This document shows, in pieces, positions 2,859 through 60,492 of a stretch of 64,000 bases of DNA. The position numbers were made by a program, and so were the translations under genes. How positions within the stretch are numbered: position 1 is the stretch's first letter; each line of letters begins with the position of its first letter. Source of the DNA: an uncultured Hyphomicrobiales bacterium (GTDB lineage: Bacteria > Bacteroidota > Ignavibacteria > Kapaibacteriales > UBA2268). The notes under the pieces are model-generated. The model did not search any database, was not told the origin of the DNA, and was given only the letters and a program-made list of their open reading frames with translations. The stretch is from contig CAYXFU010000016.1 in assembly GCA_964464375.1 (NCBI GenBank), forward strand, positions 15,074 to 79,073, given 5' to 3'.

Positions 2859-4763
2859 TTATTTAATTTTCACAAATTTCCCGACTTTATCTCCAATCCG
2901 CACAAAATACATCCCAGTAGTTAGAGAAGTGACATTGATTTGTAGGGGTTCAAAATTTTGAACCCCTACAGTCATTACAGTTTGACCGAATACATTGAAG
3001 ATACAGATACCCTCAGATGGACTCCACTTGGCAAGTGGAGCCCATCTTCTCATATCGATTTCTACGAAATCTGATGCTGGATTGGGTGAAAGAATAAAAG
3101 ACTCTGCACTTTTGATATCCGATACATCTGTGATTAAATGAATAGATAATCTGGCTCTTTGAGGTGTCTTACATTCAGTTGTTAAACTTTGTGCTTCAAT
3201 ATAAACAACTGTATCTTTATAAACATATAATGAGAAATAATTTCTTGCTGACTGAAGCAGATTACCACCAACAGGTGAATCATACAGATAAAATGTTGAA
3301 TTTTTGGGAGACAAAGGTATTATTGAAATGTCCTGTTTTTTAATAAGCACAGTATCATTTACTAATACAGGTATTCCAGGATACACTTTAATAGATGTTT
3401 GATTTTCTTCCCCGATTGAAACAGGGTCGGTACTCCTAACTCTGATTTTGTAACTCTCACCTTCTGTAACATCTGAAGGTATTCCTACCTTAATTTTGCC
3501 TTGATAAATACTTTTGCTTTTACCTATAATTTTGACATTTGATGACCATGAACCGTTTGTGTCTGACAATTCTGCAATAAATTCATTTCCTGTTTTATAT
3601 AGTATATAAGTTTTGAAAGCCAGATCAAAGCTATCTCCAGGGCAAAATTGAAGTTTCATTGGCTTGGGGTCATCTGTATTAATTGTTAGCTTTTTGTTCC
3701 TGTAATAAATAATATAAAATTCTTTTATTGTTGTATCACTAATTACAAATTGATGTCTTGAAGGCTGGATTTGTGCTATTTCCCTCATGTCTGATTTGAA
3801 TTTGGAATTTGAATCAAGACTTTCATATAATAAAAATGTTGAATTTTGTGGGAAATTAATATCTTCATATTCTAATTTCAGTGGATAATCTGTTGCCTTA
3901 GAAAAGAACTTTACATGATAAATAAGAGGTGTAGATTCGTTTTTAAATTCTCTGATATCTCTAGAATTTGAATATGGTTTCTCGTCATTAGGGGCAATAT
4001 CGTATATTCCGTATTCTAAAGTATATGGAAGACTATCTATATAAAACCTGGCTTGAAAATTACGCATAATATAGTCAAAAGGACCTTCAGCATAACATGT
4101 ATCAGCATTCATACTTGCTCTGTAATGTGATCCAAATATCAGATTTGTTGTATCTATATTTTTTGAAACTAAAAATAACTCAATACCGGGTTTTGAAGTT
4201 GAATCAAACCATTCATAAGGATTATAGAAAATCCAAATCGGTACATCAACATTGACATAACCGCTGTCATTTAATTCTTTTGCAGTAAATAATAAATTTG
4301 CTGTATAATAGCCGGGTTTCATTGTTTTTGGAGGGATAAATTTCAAATCCAAATCTAAATAATTACCTTTTGTTAGGTTGAAAACATTACCACTAGTTAC
4401 ATAATTTGGAAAGGGATTCTGCTTTCCGGCTCCGGCAACTGATTTGAATACCAAGTATGGCTGATCGGAGCTAATCAGCATTGATTCGATCTTGGATGTA
4501 TCAGTTTTCAAGCTGATATTCATTATGCCGGAATGGGTATTACCTGTTCCTGAATCGGATGAAAATGGATTCCTGATTGAATAAGAATAAAGAGAGTTCT
4601 TCATTGTCGTTGGCAACCAACCAGTTTTTCTGTCAATGTTAAACATTAATTCTGCATTTGATGAGATTTTAGCCGAATTGTTATCCATTGCAGTAATAGA
4701 TTGAGCTGATGTGAGAGCATATCCCAGTAGGGTGACAATAACTATTAAGTATTTCATCTTCAT
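2859..4763 (-). CDS. Secreted protein with T9SS C-terminal sorting domain
   Basis: signal peptide; C-terminus SPNPASDFVEIDMRRWAPLAKWSPSEGICIFNVFGQ..GMYFVRIGDKVGKFVKIK. Confidence 0.6.
   Translation of the reverse strand: MKMKYLIVIVTLLGYALTSAQSITAMDNNSAKISSNAELMFNIDRKTGWLPTTMKNSLYSYSIRNPFSSDSGTGNTHSGIMNISLKTDTSKIESMLISSDQPYLVFKSVAGAGKQNPFPNYVTSGNVFNLTKGNYLDLDLKFIPPKTMKPGYYTANLLFTAKELNDSGYVNVDVPIWIFYNPYEWFDSTSKPGIELFLVSKNIDTTNLIFGSHYRASMNADTCYAEGPFDYIMRNFQARFYIDSLPYTLEYGIYDIAPNDEKPYSNSRDIREFKNESTPLIYHVKFFSKATDYPLKLEYEDINFPQNSTFLLYESLDSNSKFKSDMREIAQIQPSRHQFVISDTTIKEFYIIYYRNKKLTINTDDPKPMKLQFCPGDSFDLAFKTYILYKTGNEFIAELSDTNGSWSSNVKIIGKSKSIYQGKIKVGIPSDVTEGESYKIRVRSTDPVSIGEENQTSIKVYPGIPVLVNDTVLIKKQDISIIPLSPKNSTFYLYDSPVGGNLLQSARNYFSLYVYKDTVVYIEAQSLTTECKTPQRARLSIHLITDVSDIKSAESFILSPNPASDFVEIDMRRWAPLAKWSPSEGICIFNVFGQTVMTVGVQNFEPLQINVTSLTTGMYFVRIGDKVGKFVKIK
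3019..3043. repeat. In-frame 25-nt palindrome ggactccacttggcaagtggagccc inside the CTD coding region (encodes WAPLAKWSP); identical copy at 53907..53931
   Basis: palindrome seen directly; same sequence at the same CTD position in a second gene. Confidence 0.7.
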
Positions 4764-4774
4764 TTTATCCCATT

Positions 4775-5563
4775 TTACAATTTTATAAATTTCCCAACTT
4801 TATCCCCAATTCTCACAAAATACATCCCCGGAGGCAAACTGGAGATATCGATTCTTACTCCCTCCCTGCTCGCGGGGAGGGTTGGGGTGGGGTTAGGTGT
4901 GGCCTGTATTTCTCCCAGCACATTATATATACTCACGTCGCTTTGTAGGGGCGAACGGCCGTTCGCCCCTACGGATATTTCTATGAAATCTGTAGTTGGA
5001 TTAGGCGATACTTCAAAATCTTCTTTATTTTCTGGATTTTTTGATGGAACGTCCAAATTAGTATCCTCGTATCTTCTTAGATAATTGAAATTTGTAACAA
5101 GGCTTACATGTCCTATCTTATTTTCAACTGAATCTATGTTAGAATAATTCATCAGTCTTAGAAGCAAAACTCGTGGTAAAAATTTGGTGGTATCGGGTTC
5201 TTGAGGTAAATACTCCCTAAACCAAAATGTTCCATAAAGCGATTCAAAATGCTGAAATTCATTTTTTGTATTTAAATAGGTTGTAAGAATATCATGCCAT
5301 GTATATTCTATTATTGTGTCTTTTGGATAAATTCCAGATCTAGGAATAACATTATACTGAAATTCAACTCGAAAAATTTGTTTGGCATATAATTGTCCAA
5401 ATGTCGGTGACCAGTAACAGCTATCAACTTTGACCGAATCGGGATTTTGAAATCCCATCTTTTGATGCTTAAGTAGTTTTAGGCAACTGTCTGGTACTTG
5501 TGCATAATTTGCACCCAAACCAATAAAACTAAAATAAAGAAACATAAAGAATAATCTTTTCAT
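4775..5563 (-). CDS. Secreted protein with T9SS C-terminal sorting domain
   Basis: signal peptide MKRLFFMFLYFSFIGLGANYAQ; C-terminus SPNPTTDFIEISVGANGRSPLQSDVSIYNVLGEI..GMYFVRIGDKVGKFIKL. Confidence 0.6.
   Translation of the reverse strand: MKRLFFMFLYFSFIGLGANYAQVPDSCLKLLKHQKMGFQNPDSVKVDSCYWSPTFGQLYAKQIFRVEFQYNVIPRSGIYPKDTIIEYTWHDILTTYLNTKNEFQHFESLYGTFWFREYLPQEPDTTKFLPRVLLLRLMNYSNIDSVENKIGHVSLVTNFNYLRRYEDTNLDVPSKNPENKEDFEVSPNPTTDFIEISVGANGRSPLQSDVSIYNVLGEIQATPNPTPTLPASREGVRIDISSLPPGMYFVRIGDKVGKFIKL
4858..4881. repeat. In-frame GC hairpin ccctccctgctcgcggggaggg at a second variable site of the CTD (between NVLGEI and IDISSL)
   Basis: inverted repeat seen directly; the analogous site in the 53712 gene and the 52735 fragment carries a different hairpin, cctctcctttccaaggagggg. 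Confidence 0.55.
4945..4972. repeat. Perfect 28-nt palindrome gtaggggcgaacggccgttcgcccctac, in-frame in the CTD (encodes VGANGRSPL); related copies at 23153..23180 and 52927..52954
   Basis: perfect palindrome seen directly; recurs in orphan CTD copies. Confidence 0.75.
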
Positions 5564-5705: not shown

Positions 5706-6497
5706 TTATCTAGAAAGATAAATTCTCTTGCGGATTAGTTTTTCCTTACCAATACGGACTTCGCCGACATAATCGCCAACGGGCAGTAGTCTTCCCGAAT
5801 CATCGCGTCCGTTCCATGTGTAAGTGAAGTCGCCGGGGCTCTGGATTCCGTCGAACATTGTAGCGATGATCACCGCATTCATAGAATAGACAACAACCTG
5901 CACTCTGGTTCTATATTCTAATGTATATTTCATTACGGGCGAAACATCCTCAACTAGTCCGAGAAAACTCCCAATCATTGAAAAAGGAATTTTAAGTCCA
6001 TTGGGGTTATAAAGAGTTGTGTTATTATAGGTCGATGCCTGCTGTAGATTGTATTCATGCTGGAACATCTCTCTAGCCGATGGTTTGAAGTATTCCGGAG
6101 GTATGTCGAGATTCTCACGGATTCTTTCGTATGGAGAATATGGTTTTTTAGCTACTGTAGGTAAATATTGGGAAAACATTCTGAGGTCATTGTTTAGCCT
6201 TGTCGAAAGTGGGATTCTCAATCGCAAAGCTCTTGTATAATTGCTGTCCTGAAACATTGATGTAGGTCTGCCGAATGCTCCGGGCATAGCATCCAATTTA
6301 GTTTTGACAGTGTCAATCTTTATTGTATCGCCTTTTAATATCTGAAGCGGAGTGAAGTTATTATCCTTGAGAATAACCTTAGAACTATCAGCTCCTGTTT
6401 TAAGGGCAAATGAAGAATTTGTGAATATAAAAAGGAACACAATGGCACTTAAAATAAAATGCAGATTTGACAGAGTATGTTTGATTTGACCGGACAT
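5706..6497 (-). CDS. Hypothetical secreted or membrane-anchored protein with C-terminal FlgD-Ig-like motif (FTYTWNGRDDSGRLLPVGDY)
   Basis: N-terminal hydrophobic segment; C-terminal motif. Confidence 0.35.
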   Translation of the reverse strand: MSGQIKHTLSNLHFILSAIVFLFIFTNSSFALKTGADSSKVILKDNNFTPLQILKGDTIKIDTVKTKLDAMPGAFGRPTSMFQDSNYTRALRLRIPLSTRLNNDLRMFSQYLPTVAKKPYSPYERIRENLDIPPEYFKPSAREMFQHEYNLQQASTYNNTTLYNPNGLKIPFSMIGSFLGLVEDVSPVMKYTLEYRTRVQVVVYSMNAVIIATMFDGIQSPGDFTYTWNGRDDSGRLLPVGDYVGEVRIGKEKLIRKRIYLSR

Positions 6498-15567: not shown

Positions 15568-15743
15568 TGTCTCTACAGTTATTAGCTGTAGAAACTTCCA
15601 ATATTATCAAGATAAAAAAAAGAACATGTCATTCTGATAAAACGAAGTATTTCAGGTATCTATAATACGGATTCGTTAATCAGAAATGACAAAGCAGAAG
15701 TATATTCCTGCATGAGAGATTACGTGAAAAGTCTGATTTAGAT

Positions 15744-15820
15744 GTCATTCCGAACGAAGTGAGGAATCTAGTCCGCATGAATACTAGATTCTCACGGTCG
15801 CTTCGCTCCCTCAGAATGAC
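15744..15820. repeat. 77-nt GTCATTC...GAATGAC hairpin repeat (family A, inverted orientation)
   Basis: gtcattccgaacgaagtgaggaatc...ctcacggtcgcttcgctccctcagaatgac. Confidence 0.65.
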
Positions 15821-19653: not shown

Positions 19654-19767
19654 GTCATTCTGAGGGAGCGAAGCGACCGTGAGTTCCGGAGGACTGCGAA
19701 GCACATCCAGTCTGTTTTTTTACTGTAAAAGACAAATACATGGATTCTTCACTTCGTTCAGAATGAC
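19654..19767. repeat. 114-nt GTCATTC...GAATGAC hairpin repeat (family A)
   Basis: gtcattctgagggagcgaagcgaccgtgag...cacttcgttcagaatgac. Confidence 0.65.
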
Positions 19768-22968: not shown

Positions 22969-22999
22969 GATGTCCAACACCTTGAAGGTGTTGGACATC
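22969..22999. terminator. Hairpin gatgtccaacacc..ggtgttggacatc downstream of htrA
   Basis: 13-bp perfect stem; weak T-tract. Confidence 0.45.
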
Positions 23000-23008
23000 T
23001 TATCTACT

Positions 23009-23190
23009 CTAAAGCTTCACAAACTTCCCGACTCTCTCCCCAATCCTCAAAAAATACATACCCGGAGCTAAGCCTGAAACATCGACTCGTTTGGGCAATT
23101 CATGAATTGCCCCTACAGACAATACAGTTTGACCATAAACATTGATTATTTTGTAAGGGCGAACGGCCGTTCGCCCCTACGAAAATTTGT
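23009..23190 (-). pseudogene. Decayed tandem copy of the CTD 3' end of the adjacent 23361..24602 gene (..VGANGRSPLQ, frameshift, NVYGQTVLSVGAIHELPKRVDVSGLAPGMYFLRIGERVGKFVKL*)
   Basis: two-frame translation; no start codon or gene body; contains palindrome 23153..23180. Confidence 0.6.
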
Positions 23191-23264
23191 TTAGATTTAT
23201 TTTCCGTTTTCTACACACAGGTCGCTACTCCGTAGCTGAATACAAAGTACATCTATTGAACGTT

Positions 23265-23288: not shown

Positions 23289-23360
23289 TTTTTCCTTTGT
23301 TTGAATTGTATTCATCATGCCTTTAATCCCATAAATCCCATAAATCCCAGTTCAGACAAT

Positions 23361-24602
23361 TTATAACTTCACGAATTTACCGACTCGATCCCCAATCCTC
23401 ACAAAATACATCCCCGGAGCTAAACCGGAAATGTCTATCCGTAGGGGTAATTCATGAATTTCCCCAACAGACAATACAGTTTGACCATAAACATTGAAGA
23501 TTTTGAATTCGCTTTGTTCGGACACGGCACGCCGTGTCCCTACGGATATTTCAATGAAATCGGATGCGGGATTGGGAGAAATAGAAAAATTAAAGTCGTT
23601 AATTGTTTCTTGAATACCAGTTATACTTTTTAAACTGATTAGACTTATATATTCAGAATTACTTATAACTAAATAATTGCTATCTGATGTAAACTTAGCA
23701 TATAAAGCTCTTAGACTTGTTGATGCGATAACAGTACCATCATTAATATCCCATATTAAAATAGGATCTAAACTCCAAAATACACCTGCAACAATAAATC
23801 TATTATTAGGTGATACAGATAATGAATATACTGCGCTACTTGTTTTGATATTTCTTAATAGAGACCTGCTCTTTGTATCACATACATTAACTCCACTTGT
23901 ATTGTTATATTTAAAATAATCGCAAACAAATTTAGAGCCGTCATTATTAAATGTAGCATAATATGATGAACCCTCGTCTTTAATTACGATGGAATCAGTT
24001 TGTAGATCGGTTAATGAGGCAGGAGTAAATCTTGTTGCTACGGCTAAATATCTATCATCTTTAGAAAATTCGATAAAATTGGGTTGTTGTCTTTCCATCC
24101 ATTCACCTATCAAGCATGGATATTGTTTATAGATTTCATCAGTTTGGAAATTTCTTATAATTACGCCTTTCTCCATTAAAGAATAAGCTAAATACTTATT
24201 ATCATGGGAGAGCGCAGCATAAAATGATCCACTAGATAAATTAACCTTTATTTCTTTAACTAAAACCCATGTTTTCGTATCCCAAACAGTTAATTTACCA
24301 TAGTTTCCATCATCAGAACCAGTAGCAATGAGAAATGAACCGTCATAAGAATATTTTACAGCAAATAATGTATAATCACAGACTTTTATTTGCTTGAATA
24401 TAGTTCCAGTTAAAAGATTAACAATTCTTATTGTTCCATCTTTTCCGCTTAATGAAATAAATTTATTGTCTGGTGAGACGTCGAAATAAGAAGAAATACC
24501 AAATTCATTTCTCCAAACCACACTAGAGTCAAGTGATATTTGGCTCTTTACATTTGCAATAAAGAAGATGAAGAAGAGTAGAATAAGAATGAATTGTTTC
24601 AT
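23361..24602 (-). CDS. WD40/beta-propeller-like secreted protein with T9SS CTD
   Basis: signal peptide; C-terminus SPNPASDFIEISVGTRRAVSEQ..GMYFVRIGDRVGKFVKL; in-frame palindrome ggacacggcacgccgtgtcc at 23516..23535. Confidence 0.6.
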   Translation of the reverse strand: MKQFILILLFFIFFIANVKSQISLDSSVVWRNEFGISSYFDVSPDNKFISLSGKDGTIRIVNLLTGTIFKQIKVCDYTLFAVKYSYDGSFLIATGSDDGNYGKLTVWDTKTWVLVKEIKVNLSSGSFYAALSHDNKYLAYSLMEKGVIIRNFQTDEIYKQYPCLIGEWMERQQPNFIEFSKDDRYLAVATRFTPASLTDLQTDSIVIKDEGSSYYATFNNDGSKFVCDYFKYNNTSGVNVCDTKSRSLLRNIKTSSAVYSLSVSPNNRFIVAGVFWSLDPILIWDINDGTVIASTSLRALYAKFTSDSNYLVISNSEYISLISLKSITGIQETINDFNFSISPNPASDFIEISVGTRRAVSEQSEFKIFNVYGQTVLSVGEIHELPLRIDISGLAPGMYFVRIGDRVGKFVKL

Positions 24603-24688: not shown

Positions 24689-26299
24689 TTATTTCCTCAG
24701 CCTGACAAACTGCTTTCCATTGAAAATGAAGATTCTGTTCAGAAGCGTTGAGTCTAATATATTTACAATGGCTTTGGTCGTGATTTGGGGCTTTATTTCG
24801 GTTGTTATCTTGATTGTCTGGAAGCCGTCGCGATAGGAGAGCTTCTCGTCTTTGATCACTGCACGCGAGATAGTGCCGTAAGGTACGAATCGGGCATTTG
24901 TGGCTGTGAGTTCGATTTGGCTTGGAGTTATCAGCTTATAGGTTATCTTTGTGTCCTTCTGCATTTCGATTCTCAACTGTGGCGATACCTCGATGTTACG
25001 GTTGTTCAGATAGTACCAGACAGCCTGTGTGAAACCGATTTTGTAGGTGTTGATCCTGTCAATCTTATCGGGGACTGCAAGGAAGATCATTGTGTCCTTG
25101 ACTCCCGGAGTATATTTCAGATTCGAGAGCGATGTTTGGGCAACATTCGCTGCGTTATGCCACTTGCCGGCTCGCACAGCAGTAACGGTGATAGAGAAAA
25201 TGCCTGCAATTATGATTATGAGCATAATAGCCTGATGCAGTGGTTTGCGGTAATCTATCCTGAACAGGCTGAGAGCCGAGATAATCAATCCCATTGATGC
25301 TGTGAACGAATACCACTGCCCGAACCTGGCGCATGCCGGAATGATGAATATGATGAACCAGCCTATTCCGAAGAGGAAAAGTTTCAGTTGTTTTCCTCGA
25401 AGAGTGATTAGTTTCCTGATTATCAGATAAAGTAATGAAAATGCGATTGTCCAGCCGAAAAGTGCGTAGATAAAGTTTGACCTAAGCCAAGTGACAAGAA
25501 TCTCGAACTGGTCTGCCTGTATGAAGCTGATCGGAATGTATAGAAGGAAGTTCTGAATGAATTTCCATAAGCTAATGCTCTCGAAGTTCGATGACTGGAA
25601 AGGAGTTCCGCCGATAACGAAGAATCTGTAAAGAAGCACAAACGAAACCAGAGCAAATGCTATGATGGATGCGTATAGAGCAGGTTTTATCCTTGATTTA
25701 TTTGTATCTTCTTTCAGGAGTAACAGTAATGGAAGCAGAACTGCGGCATAAGCAGGTTCCTTGCTCATGATTGAAAGCATAAACAGAAAGGCTGATGATA
25801 TTATTAGTAGTATTTTCTTTTCCGATCTTAGAAATACATGTAACGATAAAAGAAGGAACAGAGCCATGATAGTATCGGTGCGTCCAGCAATCCATGCGAC
25901 TGATAGTTCATGTGCAGGGAGAACAGTGAATATAAACGCTCCGATTCGTGCAGATATTTCCTCGAACTCCAGTTTTTGAAGGAGTTTGTAGAAAAGCCAG
26001 CAAATCGCTGAATAGATGGCGATGTTCGTGATATGATAGGGAATGGAGTTGTATTGGTAAAAGAACTTGGTCAGCGAATCCAGAGTCCAAACGACGGGAC
26101 GCCAGTATGGTCCGCCTACTTCGCGCTGGAAGAAGTTATTGAATGTCTCGAAGAATGTATGTGGCGACATCCAGCTTAATATTAAAAAGTCCTCATTGAT
26201 TATTCCGACTGAGATGTATCCTATCCATGGGATTACAGCCAGAACCAACAGGAACTTGGTGAAGAATTTTGAATTCGACCAGACTTTTTGTTCTTCCAT
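24689..26299 (-). CDS. Polytopic integral membrane protein, possibly a GT-C/PMT-like glycosyltransferase
   Basis: more than 10 predicted TM helices; family call is weak. Confidence 0.35.
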   Translation of the reverse strand: MEEQKVWSNSKFFTKFLLVLAVIPWIGYISVGIINEDFLILSWMSPHTFFETFNNFFQREVGGPYWRPVVWTLDSLTKFFYQYNSIPYHITNIAIYSAICWLFYKLLQKLEFEEISARIGAFIFTVLPAHELSVAWIAGRTDTIMALFLLLSLHVFLRSEKKILLIISSAFLFMLSIMSKEPAYAAVLLPLLLLLKEDTNKSRIKPALYASIIAFALVSFVLLYRFFVIGGTPFQSSNFESISLWKFIQNFLLYIPISFIQADQFEILVTWLRSNFIYALFGWTIAFSLLYLIIRKLITLRGKQLKLFLFGIGWFIIFIIPACARFGQWYSFTASMGLIISALSLFRIDYRKPLHQAIMLIIIIAGIFSITVTAVRAGKWHNAANVAQTSLSNLKYTPGVKDTMIFLAVPDKIDRINTYKIGFTQAVWYYLNNRNIEVSPQLRIEMQKDTKITYKLITPSQIELTATNARFVPYGTISRAVIKDEKLSYRDGFQTIKITTEIKPQITTKAIVNILDSTLLNRIFIFNGKQFVRLRK

Positions 26300-26306
26300 T
26301 TATGAA

Positions 26307-26609
26307 TTAAACCTCGTAATCGCAGGAATGTGTTACTTCGCGCACCTTGTTAAGGAATTCGACGACAGCAACATGAGCCGGATGCTTAGTATATAAATCC
26401 AGATCTTCCCAATTGTCATAATCAGCGAGAATCGAAAGATCATAAGCTCTCGGTGAATCGAGCTGATTGATTCCCACTTCGAAGCTTTTGATTGTTTCGA
26501 TTTGTGCAGGTAAAGCTCTTAGCATTGTTGCGACAAGCTGCACATTCTCGGCTTTTGATCTGCCGTCAGCTTCATCGTAGAATTTTATCATTATTATGTG
26601 TCTTATCAT
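26307..26609 (-). CDS. Dabb-family stress-responsive A/B-barrel protein
   Basis: ~100 aa; MIRHIIMIKF..HPAHVAVVEF pattern. Confidence 0.55.
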   Translation of the reverse strand: MIRHIIMIKFYDEADGRSKAENVQLVATMLRALPAQIETIKSFEVGINQLDSPRAYDLSILADYDNWEDLDLYTKHPAHVAVVEFLNKVREVTHSCDYEV

Positions 26610-26648
26610 GATATATCTTGATATATTTATTAATAGTAAAATTCATTC

Positions 26649-26790
26649 GTCATTCAGAGCGCAGCGAAGAATCCATGTATTTGTATTTTCTTGTAAAAAC
26701 AGCCTGGATTCTTCAGTCGCAGTGCCCCTTCTGAAGGACAGCGATTCCGTCATTCTGAACGAAGTGAAGAATCCATGTATTCATACTATT
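26649..26790. repeat. Composite of two family-A hairpin units; first 64 nt repeated directly at 27189..27252
   Basis: gtcattcagagcgcagcgaagaatccatgtatttgtattttcttgtaaaaacagcctggattct. Confidence 0.65.
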
Positions 26791-26828
26791 GCTAGATTCT
26801 TAGTACCGATTCCTCAAAAAGACAGCCA

Positions 26829-27116
26829 CTAATACCACTCTTCACTTAAATCATTCCAATTAGGATTATTACCTTCAATCAATTTAATTTTTTTTACTCT
26901 TGAATATCCTTTAATATGCTTTTCTCTGACAATAGCAGATTCAATATTTCCACAGTCTTCAAGGAATACTAGTTGATGAACAGAATATTTGGAAGTAAAA
27001 CCTTCAAATAAATTATTTTTATGTTCATAGACTCTTTTTAATAAATTAGATGTTACACCTGTGTAAAGTGTTCCATTTTTTTGCGAAGCCATAATATATA
27101 CAAACCCGTTTTTCAT
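26829..27116 (-). CDS. GIY-YIG nuclease-superfamily small protein
   Basis: GFVYIMASQKNGTLYTGVTSNLLKRVYEH (GIY..YIG motif), 95 aa. Confidence 0.7.
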   Translation of the reverse strand: MKNGFVYIMASQKNGTLYTGVTSNLLKRVYEHKNNLFEGFTSKYSVHQLVFLEDCGNIESAIVREKHIKGYSRVKKIKLIEGNNPNWNDLSEEWY

Positions 27117-27140
27117 TCATTTTTTTTTATTGATGATAAA

Positions 27141-27280
27141 TACATGGATTCATCAGTCGCTTCGCTCCTTCTGAATGACAGCCATTTCGTCATTCAGAGC
27201 GCAGCGAAGAATCCATGTATTTGTATTTTCCTGTAAAACAGCCTGGATTCTCACTGTCGCTCCGCTCCTTCTGAATGACA
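27141..27280. repeat. Composite family-A hairpin repeats; contains the direct copy of the 26649 segment
   Basis: sequence identity to 26649..26712. Confidence 0.65.
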
Positions 27281-27294
27281 CTTTTGAGACAACC

Positions 27295-27915
27295 TCATCC
27301 TAAATTTTGTTCGGGAATAAAATCCGAAAAATTATTACTTTGATTAACAGATTTAATTTCGGTCAGAACCTCATCGATAGAACTGAAGACCTTCCACGAT
27401 GTAACGAAAGCTTCACCCATGAATTTTTCGGAGATTGATTTCTCCATCATTCTGAGCAGGTCATCGTAGTAACCATTGAGATTTATGATGTAAACAGGTT
27501 TATCTATAATCCCGAGGAACTTCCAGGCTAATGCCTGAAGGAGCTCCTCCATAGTGCCGATACCGCCGGGAAGAGCTATGATAGCATCAGCACTGTGAAT
27601 AAGCTTTGATTCTCTGTGATGGATAGTTTCTACAACATTCAGCTCATCTAAATCCTCTCTGCCCCATTCTTTAGCTACCATGAACTCAGGAATGAAACCG
27701 ATAACCTTTCCGCTGTTCGCAAGTGCACCATCGGAGAGCCGCCCCATCAATCCAACTTTGCCGCCACCATAGATAATTCTGATATTCATCTTAGCCAGAG
27801 CAGTACCAAGTTCGAAAGCAGAATCAAGAAAAAATGGATCTACATTTTTGCTTGATGCACAAAAAACGCATATACTATTAATCATACTCTTGTTTTTATC
27901 ATTTAACCAATTCAC
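27295..27915 (-). CDS. LOG-family protein (cytokinin riboside 5'-monophosphate phosphoribohydrolase-like)
   Basis: PGGIGTMEEL and GGGKVGLMG motifs. Confidence 0.8.
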   Translation of the reverse strand: MNWLNDKNKSMINSICVFCASSKNVDPFFLDSAFELGTALAKMNIRIIYGGGKVGLMGRLSDGALANSGKVIGFIPEFMVAKEWGREDLDELNVVETIHHRESKLIHSADAIIALPGGIGTMEELLQALAWKFLGIIDKPVYIINLNGYYDDLLRMMEKSISEKFMGEAFVTSWKVFSSIDEVLTEIKSVNQSNNFSDFIPEQNLG

Positions 27916-28046
27916 AAAGTTAAGAAATTAGATAGACATTAAATAAGCAATATATCAATGAAAAAATGAAAATGACTTGAAAAGAATGAATTAATTTCTT
28001 ATTTTTAAATTCACAAATTTTTTTGTCAGAAAAATATTAATTTGTT

Positions 28047-29100: not shown

Positions 29101-29140
29101 TACATAGATTCTTCAGTATCTACGCTACCTCTGAATGACA
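29101..29140. repeat. Partial family-A repeat arm (tacatagattcttcag...ctctgaatgac)
   Basis: matches the right arm of the GTCATTC..GAATGAC repeats. Confidence 0.5.
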
Positions 29141-35179: not shown

Positions 35180-35548
35180 ATGATTGACAAAAAGAAATTA
35201 AAACAAGATTATTTGAACATGGTTCCGCCAAAAGGGGTGTTTGTTTTCCGGAATGAGAAGACTGGAAGAGTATATCTGGGAAGTTCGCTCAATTTGAAGA
35301 ATAAGGAAGTTAGAATTAAGTTGATGCTGAAAACCGGAAATCACTTCAACAATGCACTGCAAGAGGATTGGAACAAATACGGAGAAGATGCATTCACTTA
35401 TGAGGTAGCCGAAACATTACAGCTGAAGGATGATCCAAACTATGATTATAATGAGGATCTTGAGATACTCGAAATGCTCTTGATTGATAAGTTCAGACCA
35501 CTGGCTGAGAAATGCTATAATCAGAATGAGAAGATAAGATTGGTGTGA
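35180..35548 (+). CDS. GIY-YIG domain small protein
   Basis: GVFVFRNEKTGRVYLGSSLNLKNK matches the GIY-x(10)-YIG spacing. Confidence 0.5.
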   Translation: MIDKKKLKQDYLNMVPPKGVFVFRNEKTGRVYLGSSLNLKNKEVRIKLMLKTGNHFNNALQEDWNKYGEDAFTYEVAETLQLKDDPNYDYNEDLEILEMLLIDKFRPLAEKCYNQNEKIRLV

Positions 35549-35660
35549 TCTATTTCCTAGGGTTTGCACGCTCAGTTAATCAGATTCAGCCGCTTTGTGG
35601 CAGAAAAAAATATTAAGGCACTTGATTCTCCACTTCGTTAAGAATGACAGAAAAGGCAAC

Positions 35661-36209: not shown

Positions 36210-36364
36210 AAGCAATGAACAATTTAGATAAATCTGAAATAATCAACACACTTGACTCAATCACAAACCGGTGGCTGGAGTTATCAGAAAAGTTGTGAAG
36301 TAGCTGATTACCGTCATAAGCGATAAATACATGCCAAGCACCAAAACCAACTCCGGCAATCAGA

Positions 36365-36410
36365 GAGTGAATTAATACATTGCAATTTGCGAAATGGGAG
36401 GGAATCATGG
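36365..36410 (+). repeat. Second copy of the 40-nt AATTAATACATTGCAATTTGCGAAAT motif
   Basis: identity to 2083..2125. Confidence 0.5.
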
Positions 36411-36516
36411 CATGAATACTATATTGCCACATTTTCTACAAATCCTTATGGGATTATTATAAAACTTCCGAGAAAACCCAAACCCCTTTGAAAAAGGGGG
36501 CTAATACATTCTTTGT

Positions 36517-36672
36517 AAATCAATGAATAGCCACGAGCTTTAGCTCGTGGTGAAAAGAAAAAATGATTTTATTTGGGGATTTATCCCCACAAAAAGAGTG
36601 ATTTCGACTAAAGTCAATGAAAATAATTAGGAATCTTCCACGAGCTAAAGCTCGTGGCTATTGATTCCATCA
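36517..36672. mobile_element. MITE-like element: ~33-nt terminal inverted repeats (each containing the palindrome ccacgagctttagctcgtgg) flanking a ~90-nt AT-rich core with hairpin ggggatttatcccc
   Basis: caatgaatagccacgagctttagctcgtgg at 36517.. and its reverse complement at 36640..36672; no ORF. Confidence 0.4.
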
Positions 36673-37017
36673 TATTTTATGAGAACGCACCAGCCCTTCT
36701 TGTTCCAAGGGGGATTAAGGGGGTTTCCGTTATTCATTTTTATATTCAAATATCGCTTTCATTAGCTTTTCACCGCTAATAGATATCTTAATCACTTCCA
36801 TGGAAGAATGAGGACGATGTAAACAGGTGCTTTTTTCATGATATTACCGATCTTAAATTTATATGAACAATTTAACATCAAAGAACTTGGTGGTGGCGAA
36901 TTCCTATCGCCACCACCATCTATCATCGCCAAACACTTTATTTGGATTCTGCTGTCAATTGTCTTCTTTTGAAATGCTAATCCGGAGTTTGCATAGCATA
37001 TTCTTGCCATATTCAAT

Positions 37018-49445: not shown

Positions 49446-49536
49446 GTCATTCTGAGGGAGCGTAGCGACCGTGAGAATCCAGACTGTTTTACAAGAAAAT
49501 GCTAATACATGGATTCCTCACTTCGTTCGGAATGAC
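49446..49536. repeat. 91-nt GTCATTC...GAATGAC hairpin repeat (family A)
   Basis: gtcattctgagggagcgtagcgaccgtgag...cacttcgttcggaatgac. Confidence 0.65.
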
Positions 49537-52680: not shown

Positions 52681-52734
52681 TTTTAATCCCTTATTTTTAT
52701 ATAATTAATTTAAGAACTCACAGTTCAGACTACT

Positions 52735-52988
52735 TTACAGCTTTATAAACTTTCCGACTCTGTCCCCAGTCCTCACAAAATACATTCCAGGAGCCAAACC
52801 GGAGACATCGATTCTTGCTTTTTCCTCTCCTTTCCAAGGAGGGGTGTCACGATTGCGAAGCAACGGCGAAGCCCACTCCGGGGTGGTCTTGATTTCTCCA
52901 AGAACATTATATATCATCACCTCGCTTGTAAGGGCGAAGGACAGTTCGCCCCTACGGAAATTTCTATAAAATAAGAACTAGGATTGGG
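52735..52988 (-). pseudogene. Stand-alone frameshifted T9SS CTD cassette (..TPNPSSYFIEISVGANCPSPLQAR* then MMIYNVLGEIKTTPEWASPLL..GMYFVRTGDRVGKFIKL)
   Basis: two-frame translation gives a complete ~80-aa CTD with no gene body; ~150 nt near-identical to the 3' end of the 53712 gene; palindrome at 52927..52954. Confidence 0.6.
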
Positions 52989-53676: not shown

Positions 53677-53711
53677 ACTCGGTATACGAATATTTTCAAC
53701 TTATATTATTT

Positions 53712-54950
53712 TCAATATTTTATAAACTTCCAGATCTTATCCCCAATCCTCACGAAATACATACCCGGAGCCAAACCGGAGACATCGATTCTTGCTTTTT
53801 CCTCTCCTTTCCAAGGAGGGGTGTCACGATTGCGAAGCAACGGCGAAGCCCACTGCGGGGTGGTCTTGATTTCTCCAAGAACATTAAAGATTCTTATCTC
53901 AACAGATGGACTCCACTTGGCAAGTGGAGCCCATCTTGCCAAGTCGATTTCTATAAAGTCCGTGGCGGGATTAGGGAAAATATAATTATCTTTAACATTA
54001 ATATTATCATCAAATCCAGATTGTAGTGGTGAAGTTGCAACAACCAGATTATCGATCCACATAGTCTGTTCAATGGGAGAGCCATCGCCAATATAGGGAG
54101 CAATCAGGAACTGATTGAGCTTCATATCGGGGAATTGTGCTGTTCTGAATATAATATTATCATAACTTATCAAAATCTTGGAATCGTACCAGTATCTGAT
54201 CTTCCCGTCAGTAACTCCTTTACCGCCTTGAATACTATTCAGCTTAAAATATGCTTCCACATGATGCCAGTCATTCTTGTAGTTGAGTCCCTGTGCGTCT
54301 GTGAAATAAACTGTGTCGGCATCCCATATTCTTGCACTATAATAGTATCCACCGCCATAGTTGAAGCAATCGCTTCTATCGAAACCACCCTCGATACCAT
54401 TGCATGCGGCTATGGAACGATTCTCGGAGAACTTATAGCTATTAAAATCTCCATCGCAGCCGATAAAATTACCGTTGTTCTGCAAGATACACGTCTGATC
54501 TACATTCTTGCTGTCCTGAAGTGCAAGCAGGGGCTTACCCTCATTCTGTTCGATATATAAAGTTAGATGAGTGATTGCCGGACCGACATATTTATCATCA
54601 GCATTTGTCATAATATTAAATTCATGAGGATGATACGGCTTGTTCGAGCCTTCCCAGTTTGCACTATACTTCACCCAATAGCTTACGTAGAGTTCATCTG
54701 TTTCGGTGAACAGATGACGGCTGGGGGTCCCTGCGGCGCATCCTCTCTGCCCCTGCAGGAATTTACACTCGAAGCAGGCAGTACTCCCATTGATATGCTC
54801 AGCCGTTGAAATTGTCCCTTTAGACGCATCGTACCACCCACGCAAAGCAAAGTCATTATCATCAAAATTCTCAATAAAGAGAATGGTTTGAGCTAATAGA
54901 GCTACAAAACCAAAAGTGCTTATAAACAATATGATGAATAATGTTCTCAT
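53712..54950 (-). CDS. Secreted protein with T9SS CTD carrying two in-frame hairpins (WAPLAKWSP palindrome 53907..53931; cctctcctttccaaggagggg 53801..53821)
   Basis: signal peptide; C-terminus FPNPATDFIEIDLARWAPLAKWSPS..NVLGEIKTTPQWASPLLRNRDTPPWKGEEKARIDVSGLAPGMYFVRIGDKIWKFIKY. Confidence 0.55.
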   Translation of the reverse strand: MRTLFIILFISTFGFVALLAQTILFIENFDDNDFALRGWYDASKGTISTAEHINGSTACFECKFLQGQRGCAAGTPSRHLFTETDELYVSYWVKYSANWEGSNKPYHPHEFNIMTNADDKYVGPAITHLTLYIEQNEGKPLLALQDSKNVDQTCILQNNGNFIGCDGDFNSYKFSENRSIAACNGIEGGFDRSDCFNYGGGYYYSARIWDADTVYFTDAQGLNYKNDWHHVEAYFKLNSIQGGKGVTDGKIRYWYDSKILISYDNIIFRTAQFPDMKLNQFLIAPYIGDGSPIEQTMWIDNLVVATSPLQSGFDDNINVKDNYIFPNPATDFIEIDLARWAPLAKWSPSVEIRIFNVLGEIKTTPQWASPLLRNRDTPPWKGEEKARIDVSGLAPGMYFVRIGDKIWKFIKY

Positions 54951-60174: not shown

Positions 60175-60492
60175 ATACATAGATTCCTCACCTACGGTTC
60201 GGAATGACGAAGGGGCTGTCATTCAGAAGGAGCGTAGCGACTGAAGGAATCCAGGCTGTTTTCTTCGAGAAAAATACAAATACATGGATTCCTCATTTCA
60301 TTCGGAATGACGGAATGGCTGTCATTCTGCGGGAGCATAGTGACTGAAGGAATCCAGGCTGTTTTTTTACAGAGGGAATACAAAATACATGGATTCCTCA
60401 CTATGTTCGGAATGGCAAAAAGGCTGTCATTCAGAAGGAGCGTAGCGACTGTAAGTTCCGAAGGACTGCGAAGCGCATCCAGGCTGTTTTTT
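60175..60492. repeat. Tandem array of three ~104-nt units of the GTCATTC...GAATGAC hairpin repeat
   Basis: gtcattc begins at 60218, 60321 and 60425; each unit carries gtcattc[at]g[ac]..gagcgtagcgactg..ggaatccaggctgtttt and tacatggattcctca..ttcggaatgac arms. Confidence 0.7.

Follow-up and report, generated by a model that had tools for sequence, protein, structure and literature searches.

A 64,000-nucleotide stretch of DNA from a Kapabacteria-like bacterium (contig CAYXFU010000016.1, positions 15,074 to 79,073; hereafter the window) carries a small gene for a GIY-YIG protein, at 26829–27116 on the minus strand, among copies of a short, imperfectly palindromic repeat, which we refer to as arms. 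Our results indicate that its 95-amino-acid product is very probably a member of the Ssn family and that the GTCATTC...GAATCC arms are its cognate recognition hairpins, known as Ssn-related motifs (SRMs). The locus is a new member of a system that was already published in 2025, with a divergent motif subtype and in a new, Kapabacteria-like lineage. It extends the system to a genome in which the stems carry G.A mismatches and in which short and long arms are paired into units. The linkage of gene and repeat that defines the Ssn system was here picked up from raw sequence by an unaided reader, whose initial annotation proposed that the nuclease acts on the repeats or travels with them.

Chenal et al. 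(Nat Commun 2025, PMC11893778) described Ssn proteins as single-domain GIY-YIG proteins of around 94 amino acids (CDD cd10448) whose genes are flanked by hairpin repeats, termed SRMs in general; the Neisseria repeats, NTS (CGTCATTCCCGCGMAVGCGGGAATCYRG), are a superset of dRS3. At least one SRM was present at 71% of homolog loci, with SRMs on both sides at 42%. Four purified homologs bound the hairpin only as single-stranded DNA (ssDNA) and cut a few nucleotides upstream of the motif. Cutting required the GTC that precedes the palindrome, and binding the C that follows it; cleavage also occurred when the stem was put together from two strands, and the characterised members were inactive on double-stranded DNA (dsDNA). 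Residues Y6, Y17 and E64 were essential for catalysis by SsnA, and in N. meningitidis the nuclease lowered transformation by motif-bearing DNA, restricting its recombination when it enters as ssDNA (PMC11893778). A literature search found no follow-up to this paper.

The GIY-YIG gene, its flanking arms and its homologs

The gene was called as an open reading frame (ORF) of 288 nt including the stop codon. Its product matches a single domain, Pfam GIY-YIG (PF01541, E=1.8e-13, residues 4–74), and carries Y7, Y18 and E65 at spacings of 11 and 47 residues, identical to those of Y6, Y17 and E64 in N. meningitidis SsnA. Among 35 homologs Y18 is invariant, and Y7 and E65 are each conserved in at least 90%. 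An AlphaFold2 model of the protein (predicted local distance difference test score, pLDDT, of 96) has the order β-β-α-α-β-α-α, and its best fold matches in the PDB are GIY-YIG proteins, namely UPF0213 (1zg2), Slx1 and the N-terminal domain of UvrC. Searching the PDB by sequence returned just a weak match to the separate UPF0213 family (E=0.003), and no solved Ssn structure was found there. The window has a G+C content of 37%, and the closest named relatives of its proteins are from Candidatus Kapabacteria and metagenome-assembled genomes (MAGs) of the FCB group.

In the orientation of the gene, the locus runs from a LOG gene through a gene-less unit of two arms (27279–27189), a 9-nt linker (27180–27188), a long arm (27179–27146) and a 29-nt leader into the ORF, and then through a degenerate long arm (26828–26795), a short spacer, a short arm (26774–26749), a linker and a second gene-less unit (26739–26649) to a Dabb gene. 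The two arms nearest to the ssn-like gene are inverted relative to each other rather than directly repeated. The putative upstream recognition hairpin is the long arm at 27146–27179 on the minus strand, which shares the gene's orientation, ends 29 nt before the ATG and reads GTC-ATTCA-GA-AG-GA-GC-GAA-GC-GA-CT-GA-TGAAT-CC, equivalent to two nested tandem-G.A modules. Its putative downstream counterpart is the short arm GTCATTCTGAACGAAGTGAAGAATCC at 26749–26774 on the plus strand, opposite to the gene and 54 nt past the stop codon; an identical arm lies downstream of the homolog at a Kapaibacteriales locus (L009). The degenerate long-arm-like sequence at 26795–26828 (minus strand), which we read from the sequence and did not recover in the scans, abuts the stop codon and, together with the downstream short arm, resembles a unit that has decayed and whose spacer has become shorter.

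Near-identical 64-nt direct repeats on either side of the gene (26649–26712 and 27189–27252) had been noticed in the initial annotation, and they are clearly present: their 65-column alignment has 62 identities, a single mismatch and an indel of 1 nt, and weaker similarity reaches around 96 nt (26646–26741 and 27186–27281). They do flank the gene, but they consist of the spacer and short arm of the two outer gene-less units and are not its functional bracket. The upstream-side unit, at 27189–27279, comprises a short arm (27189–27214, plus strand), a spacer and a long arm (27245–27279, minus strand); it holds the second 64-nt repeat and is predicted to fold as ssDNA into an imperfect hairpin of around 95 nt (−21.7 kcal/mol, z=−6.4). 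The downstream-side unit, at 26649–26739, has the same make-up (short arm 26649–26674, plus strand; spacer; long arm 26706–26739, minus strand), holds the first 64-nt repeat and has a predicted fold of −19.3 kcal/mol (z=−4.9). A scan of 26250–27950 for sigma-70 promoters was uninformative, as it returned four promoter-like sites where 5.5 would be expected.

Many small GIY-YIG genes encode homing endonucleases, and the initial annotation had pointed to homing or mobility as a frequent role of such proteins. A free-standing homing enzyme would make a double-strand break in empty units, into which the gene would then be copied by repair. The gene does share a catalytic fold, small size and patchy distribution with those of the GIY-YIG homing endonucleases I-TevI and the Seg proteins, its product resembles the group I intron endonuclease model TIGR01453 over residues 4–39, though weakly and below threshold (22 bits, with the cutoff at 56), and a filled/empty site polymorphism bounded by the repeat, described below, is of the kind that homing would produce. 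However, the 95-residue single domain lacks the linker and separate DNA-binding domains that homing GIY-YIG enzymes need, the gene lies in neither an intron nor a phage genome, the arms are inverted on both sides of it rather than forming two halves of a split target, and characterised relatives cut only ssDNA and have no activity on dsDNA (PMC11893778). We consider classical dsDNA homing very improbable.

We collected 80 genome loci encoding homologs at 54–68% identity, from Pseudomonadota, Planctomycetota, Nitrospirota, candidate phyla radiation groups, Chloroflexota, Bacteroidota, Kapaibacteriales and others, many of them flanked by the exact NTS consensus, and assessed 85 homolog genes for arms with the pattern GTCATTC-N6-30-GAAT(C/T)C. 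Matching arms were present in 64 of 83 sources. Their density fell with distance from the gene, from 5.35 arms per kb within 100 nt through 1.53, 0.29 and 0.11 to 0.053 at 3–10 kb, an enrichment of around 100-fold next to the gene. An upstream arm in the same orientation was found at 44 of the 85 genes and a downstream arm in the opposite orientation at 40, with both present at 29 and at least one at 55. The positions and orientations of the arms in the window are this canonical arrangement. As a negative control we used 79 loci with distant homologs of LOG, an unrelated anchor gene, and found no arms in their 383 kb. The co-occurrence of gene and repeat is non-random, which supports the proposal that the nuclease travels with the repeats.

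Many arms near homologs equal the NTS consensus. The stem sequence varies with lineage (ATTCCCGC/GCGGGAAT, ATTCCTGC/GCAGGAAT and ATTCCGGC/GCCGGAAT, plus long-loop forms) within a constant GTC-ATTC...GAAT-CC frame. Several close homologs end in ...W(F/L)LDSSLRSE*, and because DSSLRSE* is the translated complement of the short arm, the arm overlaps the 3′ end of the gene in those genomes. Many homolog ORFs run into the downstream arm and stop at the TGA within GAATGAC, such that the repeat supplies the stop codon, and the resulting tails are lineage-specific (DSSLRSE*, GFLPPQE* and GFPPSRE*; P0003, P0007, P0009, P0012, P0013 and P0020; loci L015, L034, L044, L010 and L078).

The homologs occupy unrelated genomic contexts, including the inside of a cas9–cas2 locus. 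At that locus (L169 4800–5800, Chloroflexota MAG GCA_050260015.1), no cas1 was called between cas9 and cas2, and the ssn homolog has one upstream arm and three tandem downstream arms with an ACTC/GAGT stem variant. In the Kapaibacteriales MAG locus L009, at least seven tandem copies of a 21-nt sequence, GTAAAGACCTTTCCGAAyrGC, lie at 6071–6279, around 2 kb upstream of the ssn homolog. Two copies of 21 nt that contain AGAATGACGGGCGG come before them.

The same data bear on whether the gene simply landed in a repeat-rich region, with the repeats being ordinary intergenic structural or regulatory elements such as terminators or mRNA stabilisers. The window's 19 clear and 3 degenerate arms are spread over 8–9 of around 40 intergenic regions, at least six sites have no GIY-YIG gene, and the chance of finding arms on both flanks of a gene in the window is, by a rough estimate, around 0.05. 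Such a coincidence would leave unexplained the distance-dependent enrichment and fixed orientation over the 80 loci, the arm-free controls, the change of stem sequence with gene lineage and the direct binding and cutting seen in published biochemistry (PMC11893778); in addition, the terminator scan of 26250–27950 returned no terminators or terminator-like sites. Coincidental association is refuted by the cross-genome enrichment, and we give it next to no credence.

The mechanism has been demonstrated for four homologs elsewhere, each of which cuts ssDNA beside its own flanking hairpin (PMC11893778), and this supports, by analogy, the proposed action of the window protein on the repeats. An arm would fold into a hairpin when the DNA is single-stranded, and the protein would bind the base of the stem (ATTC/GAAT) together with the C immediately 3′ of it. 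The GTC immediately 5′ of the stem would be needed, and the same strand would be hydrolysed a few nucleotides upstream, with dsDNA, RNA and the complementary strand remaining uncut. By the same analogy, the role of the system here may be site-specific cutting of ssDNA at hairpins, affecting recombination of incoming or replicating DNA. A selfish or domesticated, REPtron-like origin of the system is plausible. Each pair of nuclease and hairpin is also a potential new specificity for ssDNA-cutting tools.

The arm family and its imperfect stems

The sequence GTCATTCNGA occurs 17 times in the window compared with 0.78 expected, and a Hamming scan with the arm consensuses recovered the 19 clear arms from 36 raw hits, where shuffled sequence gave 0.05 raw hits. 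Five of them overlap with crude, probably spurious ORF calls. Short arms of 26 nt, (C)GTCATTCnGAnCGnAGnGAAGAATCC, read CGTC-ATTC...GAAT-CCA, and long arms of 34–35 nt, (T)GTCATTCnGArGGAGCGnAGCGACnGTGAGAATCC, read TGTC-ATTC...GAAT-CCA. GTC followed by ATTC opens 16 of the 19 arms; the exceptions to a clean start are at 26706 (GTCCTTC), 60391 (GCCATTC) and 29106, which keeps GTC-ATTC and has six mismatches. All arms end in GAAT-C except the long arms at 19654 and 60426, both of which bear an insertion. The same insertion of around 22 nt (GTTCCGGAGGACTGCGAAGCAC) precedes the 3′ end of these two arms (19682–19705 and 60453–60478) and constitutes a third arm variant. A scan of the whole window with Rfam found no family at threshold, so the arm repeats are not a curated RNA family.

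A gene-less unit of around 95 nt consists of a short and a long arm in inverted orientation, with their tails facing and a conserved 25–31-nt spacer between them. Single units lie at 15744–15820 (short arm plus, long arm minus, with an extra degenerate arm at 15628), 19654–19767 (long arm plus with the ~22-nt insertion, short arm minus) and 49446–49536 (long arm plus, short arm minus). Tandem units surround the ssn-like gene and form an array of around 3.5 gene-less units at 60183–60459, with a period of 103–105 nt; this array has the opposite orientation to the one at 26.6–27.3 kb and is without an ssn gene. Head-to-head junctions of arms occur in the window only between units of an array. 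The arm scan also returned a solo long arm at 29106–29139 on the minus strand, the degenerate one with six mismatches.

The arms are of the same class as the Neisseria NTS/dRS3 repeats and the CGTC-tagged repetitive extragenic palindromes (REPs) of Di Nocera, De Gregorio and Rocco (BMC Genomics 2013, PMC3733652), which have a CGTC or TGTC tag, a stem starting with AT and a CCA tail, and which were reported in Bacteroidetes and Chlorobi among other phyla, with no dedicated transposase. Tag, stem start and tail are the same here, as is the intergenic and dimeric organisation. In contrast to the 8–9-bp perfect stems, 4–5-nt loops and mostly head-to-head dimers of those REPs (PMC3733652), the window arms have a G.A-mismatched stem and a 3-nt loop, and they pair tail to tail in their basic unit. 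The GIY-YIG gene that they flank supplies the associated gene that had been missing for the CGTC-tagged REPs.

The locus agrees with the Ssn/SRM system in the single domain of ~94–95 amino acids, the catalytic spacing, the oriented 5′ and 3′ hairpins with the frame (C/T)GTC-ATTC...GAAT-CC, the dispersal of the repeats in many intergenic copies and the association across phyla. It differs in its host, a Kapabacteria-like bacterium of the FCB group, in the tail-to-tail pairing of short and long arms into ~95-nt units and tandem arrays, and in its imperfect stems. These have 5 bp (ATTCy/rGAAT), a conserved tandem G.A/A.G mismatch, at least 2 bp and a GNA triloop. This 'G.A bracket' also appears in arms next to homologs from Kapabacteria (L009 and L167), Hyphomicrobiales (L003), Bacteroidetes (L020), Saccharibacteria (L056) and Doudnabacteria (L079). 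Across seven lineages the inner stem covaries (AC/GT, GC/GC, GCC/GGC and TTCCGC/GCGGAA) around a conserved tandem G.A bracket. Within the arms, ten of 26 nt gave 98.6% of cells paired and compensatory changes in three of seven pairs, a covariation score reached by none of 500 shuffles, with slid controls scoring much lower. Covariation thus backs the helix within each arm in a manner that is supportive rather than conclusive, as the arm set is small and related.

Several points weigh against assignment to the Ssn system. The case for membership is one of homology to proteins whose genes have canonical NTS motifs beside them, and the published SRM pattern, HGTCWYN(0-2)YYVSBRHN(0-5)WNVSBRGN(0-2)RNCYNB, has no match in the window. 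In a nearest-neighbour model, the fold energies of single arms lie between −0.5 and −4.7 kcal/mol, and four of five have z>0, which predicts no stable ssDNA hairpin, compared with −9 kcal/mol (z=−5.5) for the canonical NTS. For whole units the predicted energies are −17 to −22 kcal/mol, and z lies between −4.3 and −6.4 in four of the five tested (−4.3 for both 15744–15820 and 49446–49536) and −1.9 for 19654–19767. Only the short-plus-long units fold well.

Part of this is accounted for by the motif itself. Our implementation of the SRM pattern matches the canonical NTS and gives 176 hits in the 80 loci, and the window arms escape it because of their G.A-mismatched stem. The pattern is a search tool drawn from 29 genomes, not a definition of the family, and surveys that use it would undercount the family, as it misses the subtype in the window. 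As for folding, the protein may recognise either each arm, with sheared G.A pairs being undervalued by the model, or the long hairpin formed between arms.

Presence, absence and possible mobility of the gene

Contigs L001 and L002 are identical to the window. Scanning metagenomes with the neighbouring LOG protein yielded one close relative, L083, in addition to the 79 distant LOG homologs. In L083, where the LOG protein is 89% identical in amino acid sequence, the LOG and Dabb genes are separated by a single unit whose outer flanks are those of the window, and this unit is orthologous to the window unit at 27189–27279. The difference is a clean indel of exactly one direct-repeat period of 540 nt (26646–27185), comprising the gene, two arms and one gene-less unit, with a boundary that can be slid anywhere within the repeat. 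The window and this one related contig thus differ in the presence of the block, a comparison between related genomes that the initial annotation had proposed.

With its inverted pair of arms, the ssn-like gene is embedded in a short tandem array of units that lack a gene. Direct repetition of these units means that recombination or slippage could gain or lose the gene and one unit as a block, and such block gain or loss would explain the 540-nt difference from L083. The sequences fit both loss by recombination or slippage between repeats and gain of a gene-plus-unit block. Similarly, the junction sequences fit both an origin of the gene-less units by deletion of the gene from a complete unit and an insertion of the gene between a long arm and a spacer.

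A further reading goes beyond repeat recombination and takes the arm–gene–arm segment to be an autonomous element resembling an insertion sequence (IS) or a REPtron, in which the nuclease mobilises the unit and disperses gene-less units akin to REPINs or miniature inverted-repeat transposable elements (MITEs). The flanking direct repeats would then be integration footprints, for example of a circular gene-plus-unit intermediate that entered an existing unit. The inverted-arm architecture resembles the REPtrons of RAYTs, which are IS200/IS605-like Y1 transposases with inverted REPs. In both cases a small gene is bracketed by an inverted, genome-dispersed hairpin repeat, the doublets resemble REPINs and the enzyme would, by analogy, act on single-stranded hairpins. 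The two differ in enzyme and tag, with a GIY-YIG hydrolase here in place of an HUH/Y1 transposase and CGTC in place of GTAG, and no Y1_Tnp gene adjoins any arm in the window. A literature search for GIY-YIG paired with REP, RAYT or MITE found nothing relevant.

Several observations are consistent with such an element. In L007, two paralogous copies are similar over exactly 403 nt, from TGTC-arm to arm-GACA, and are bounded by 36–38-nt terminal inverted repeats, which are the arms, with unrelated flanks. Four loci carry two to three ssn copies, the 540-nt polymorphism is bounded by repeats and homologs are found in unrelated contexts, the cas9–cas2 locus among them. Flanking direct repeats scoring at least 20 are present at 27 of 74 genes compared with 1.8% of 395 control positions, and L009 has a 44–57-nt non-arm repeat at a spacing of 545 nt. 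The 2025 authors themselves raised the mobile-element hypothesis (PMC11893778).

On the other side, the L007 copies have no evident target-site duplication, deletion between direct repeats explains the indel equally well, and most of the flanking direct repeats are simply additional arm dimers or arrays, so that their enrichment is not independent of the arm enrichment. No family member is known to transpose. To our knowledge, GIY-YIG enzymes hydrolyse DNA, and no strand-transfer or joining activity is known in the superfamily; we know of no covalent intermediate or strand transfer by an Ssn-type enzyme, in which it differs from RAYTs, and of no prokaryotic precedent for transposition or integration driven by a GIY-YIG protein.

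We therefore regard mobilisation of the unit by its nuclease as possible and rather unlikely. The fuller version, in which arm–ssn–arm units of ~400–540 nt are autonomous mobile elements whose GIY-YIG nuclease works on single-stranded hairpins and the ~95-nt units are their non-autonomous, REPIN-like derivatives, strikes us as somewhat more doubtful still. If it holds, the 540-nt polymorphism, the 403-nt units of L007 and the flanking direct repeats at around a third of loci would be its footprints, and the conserved tandem G.A pairs of the stems would signal a recognition mode peculiar to this subtype. The hints keep an IS-like or REPtron-like hypothesis alive and do not themselves demonstrate transposition. 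The clean filled/empty site and the discrete duplicated units offer modest comparative support on the question of whether cassettes move, which bears on the spread of CGTC-type REPs, long noted as being without a transposase.

A second GIY-YIG-like ORF and other repeats

The initial annotation also described a second GIY-YIG gene bordering a repeat arm. The ORF (35180–35548) and, after it, a solo degenerate short arm (35623–35648, minus strand, three mismatches to the short-arm consensus) both exist, but the ORF belongs to an unrelated family and the arm is incidental. Its 122-residue product has no Pfam match and a below-threshold match to TIGR01453. The family is narrow and uniform in size, with 47 homologs at 51–100% identity from the FCB group, Bacteroidota and Chloroflexota, some of which have the name GIY-YIG and a PF01541 domain; this ORF and the ssn product have in common only the GIY-YIG motif region (7 of 20 residues). 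No arms were found near its homologs in three other genomic contexts, and the syntenic arm in L163 has decayed further still than the one at 35623–35648. With arms in 8–9 of around 40 intergenic regions, roughly 40% of the window's genes would border an arm-bearing region by chance. We rejected this ORF as part of the system on these grounds, namely a different family, homologs without arms and chance adjacency.

The 122-residue family occupies differing gene neighbourhoods in different genomes, and in one relative a Y1_Tnp gene, absent from the window, lies around 1.1 kb downstream of the homolog. Nearby, few genes lie in 36215–36790, where a truncated pterin-4a-like start is accompanied by other repeat families, including CCACGAGCTTTAGCTCGTGG hairpins at around 36529–36550 and 36638–36657 and a 59-nt repeat shared with 2058–2116. 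In a related genome this position is occupied by Pterin_4a and a 124-residue Y1_Tnp (IS200/RAYT-like) gene.

The window also contains a repeat of around 99 nt in seven copies at 66–79% identity (2142–2240, 2848–2946, 4761–4859, 22995–23093, 23347–23445, 52721–52819 and 53698–53796). The repeat resembles coding sequence for a shared C-terminal domain, which may be a type IX secretion sorting domain; a Por_Secre_tail was seen in a neighbouring gene. In four cases a G+C-rich palindrome, GGGGCGAACGGCCGTTCGCCCC, adjoins the repeat, at 4943–5005, 23151–23213, 23514–23576 and 52926–52988.

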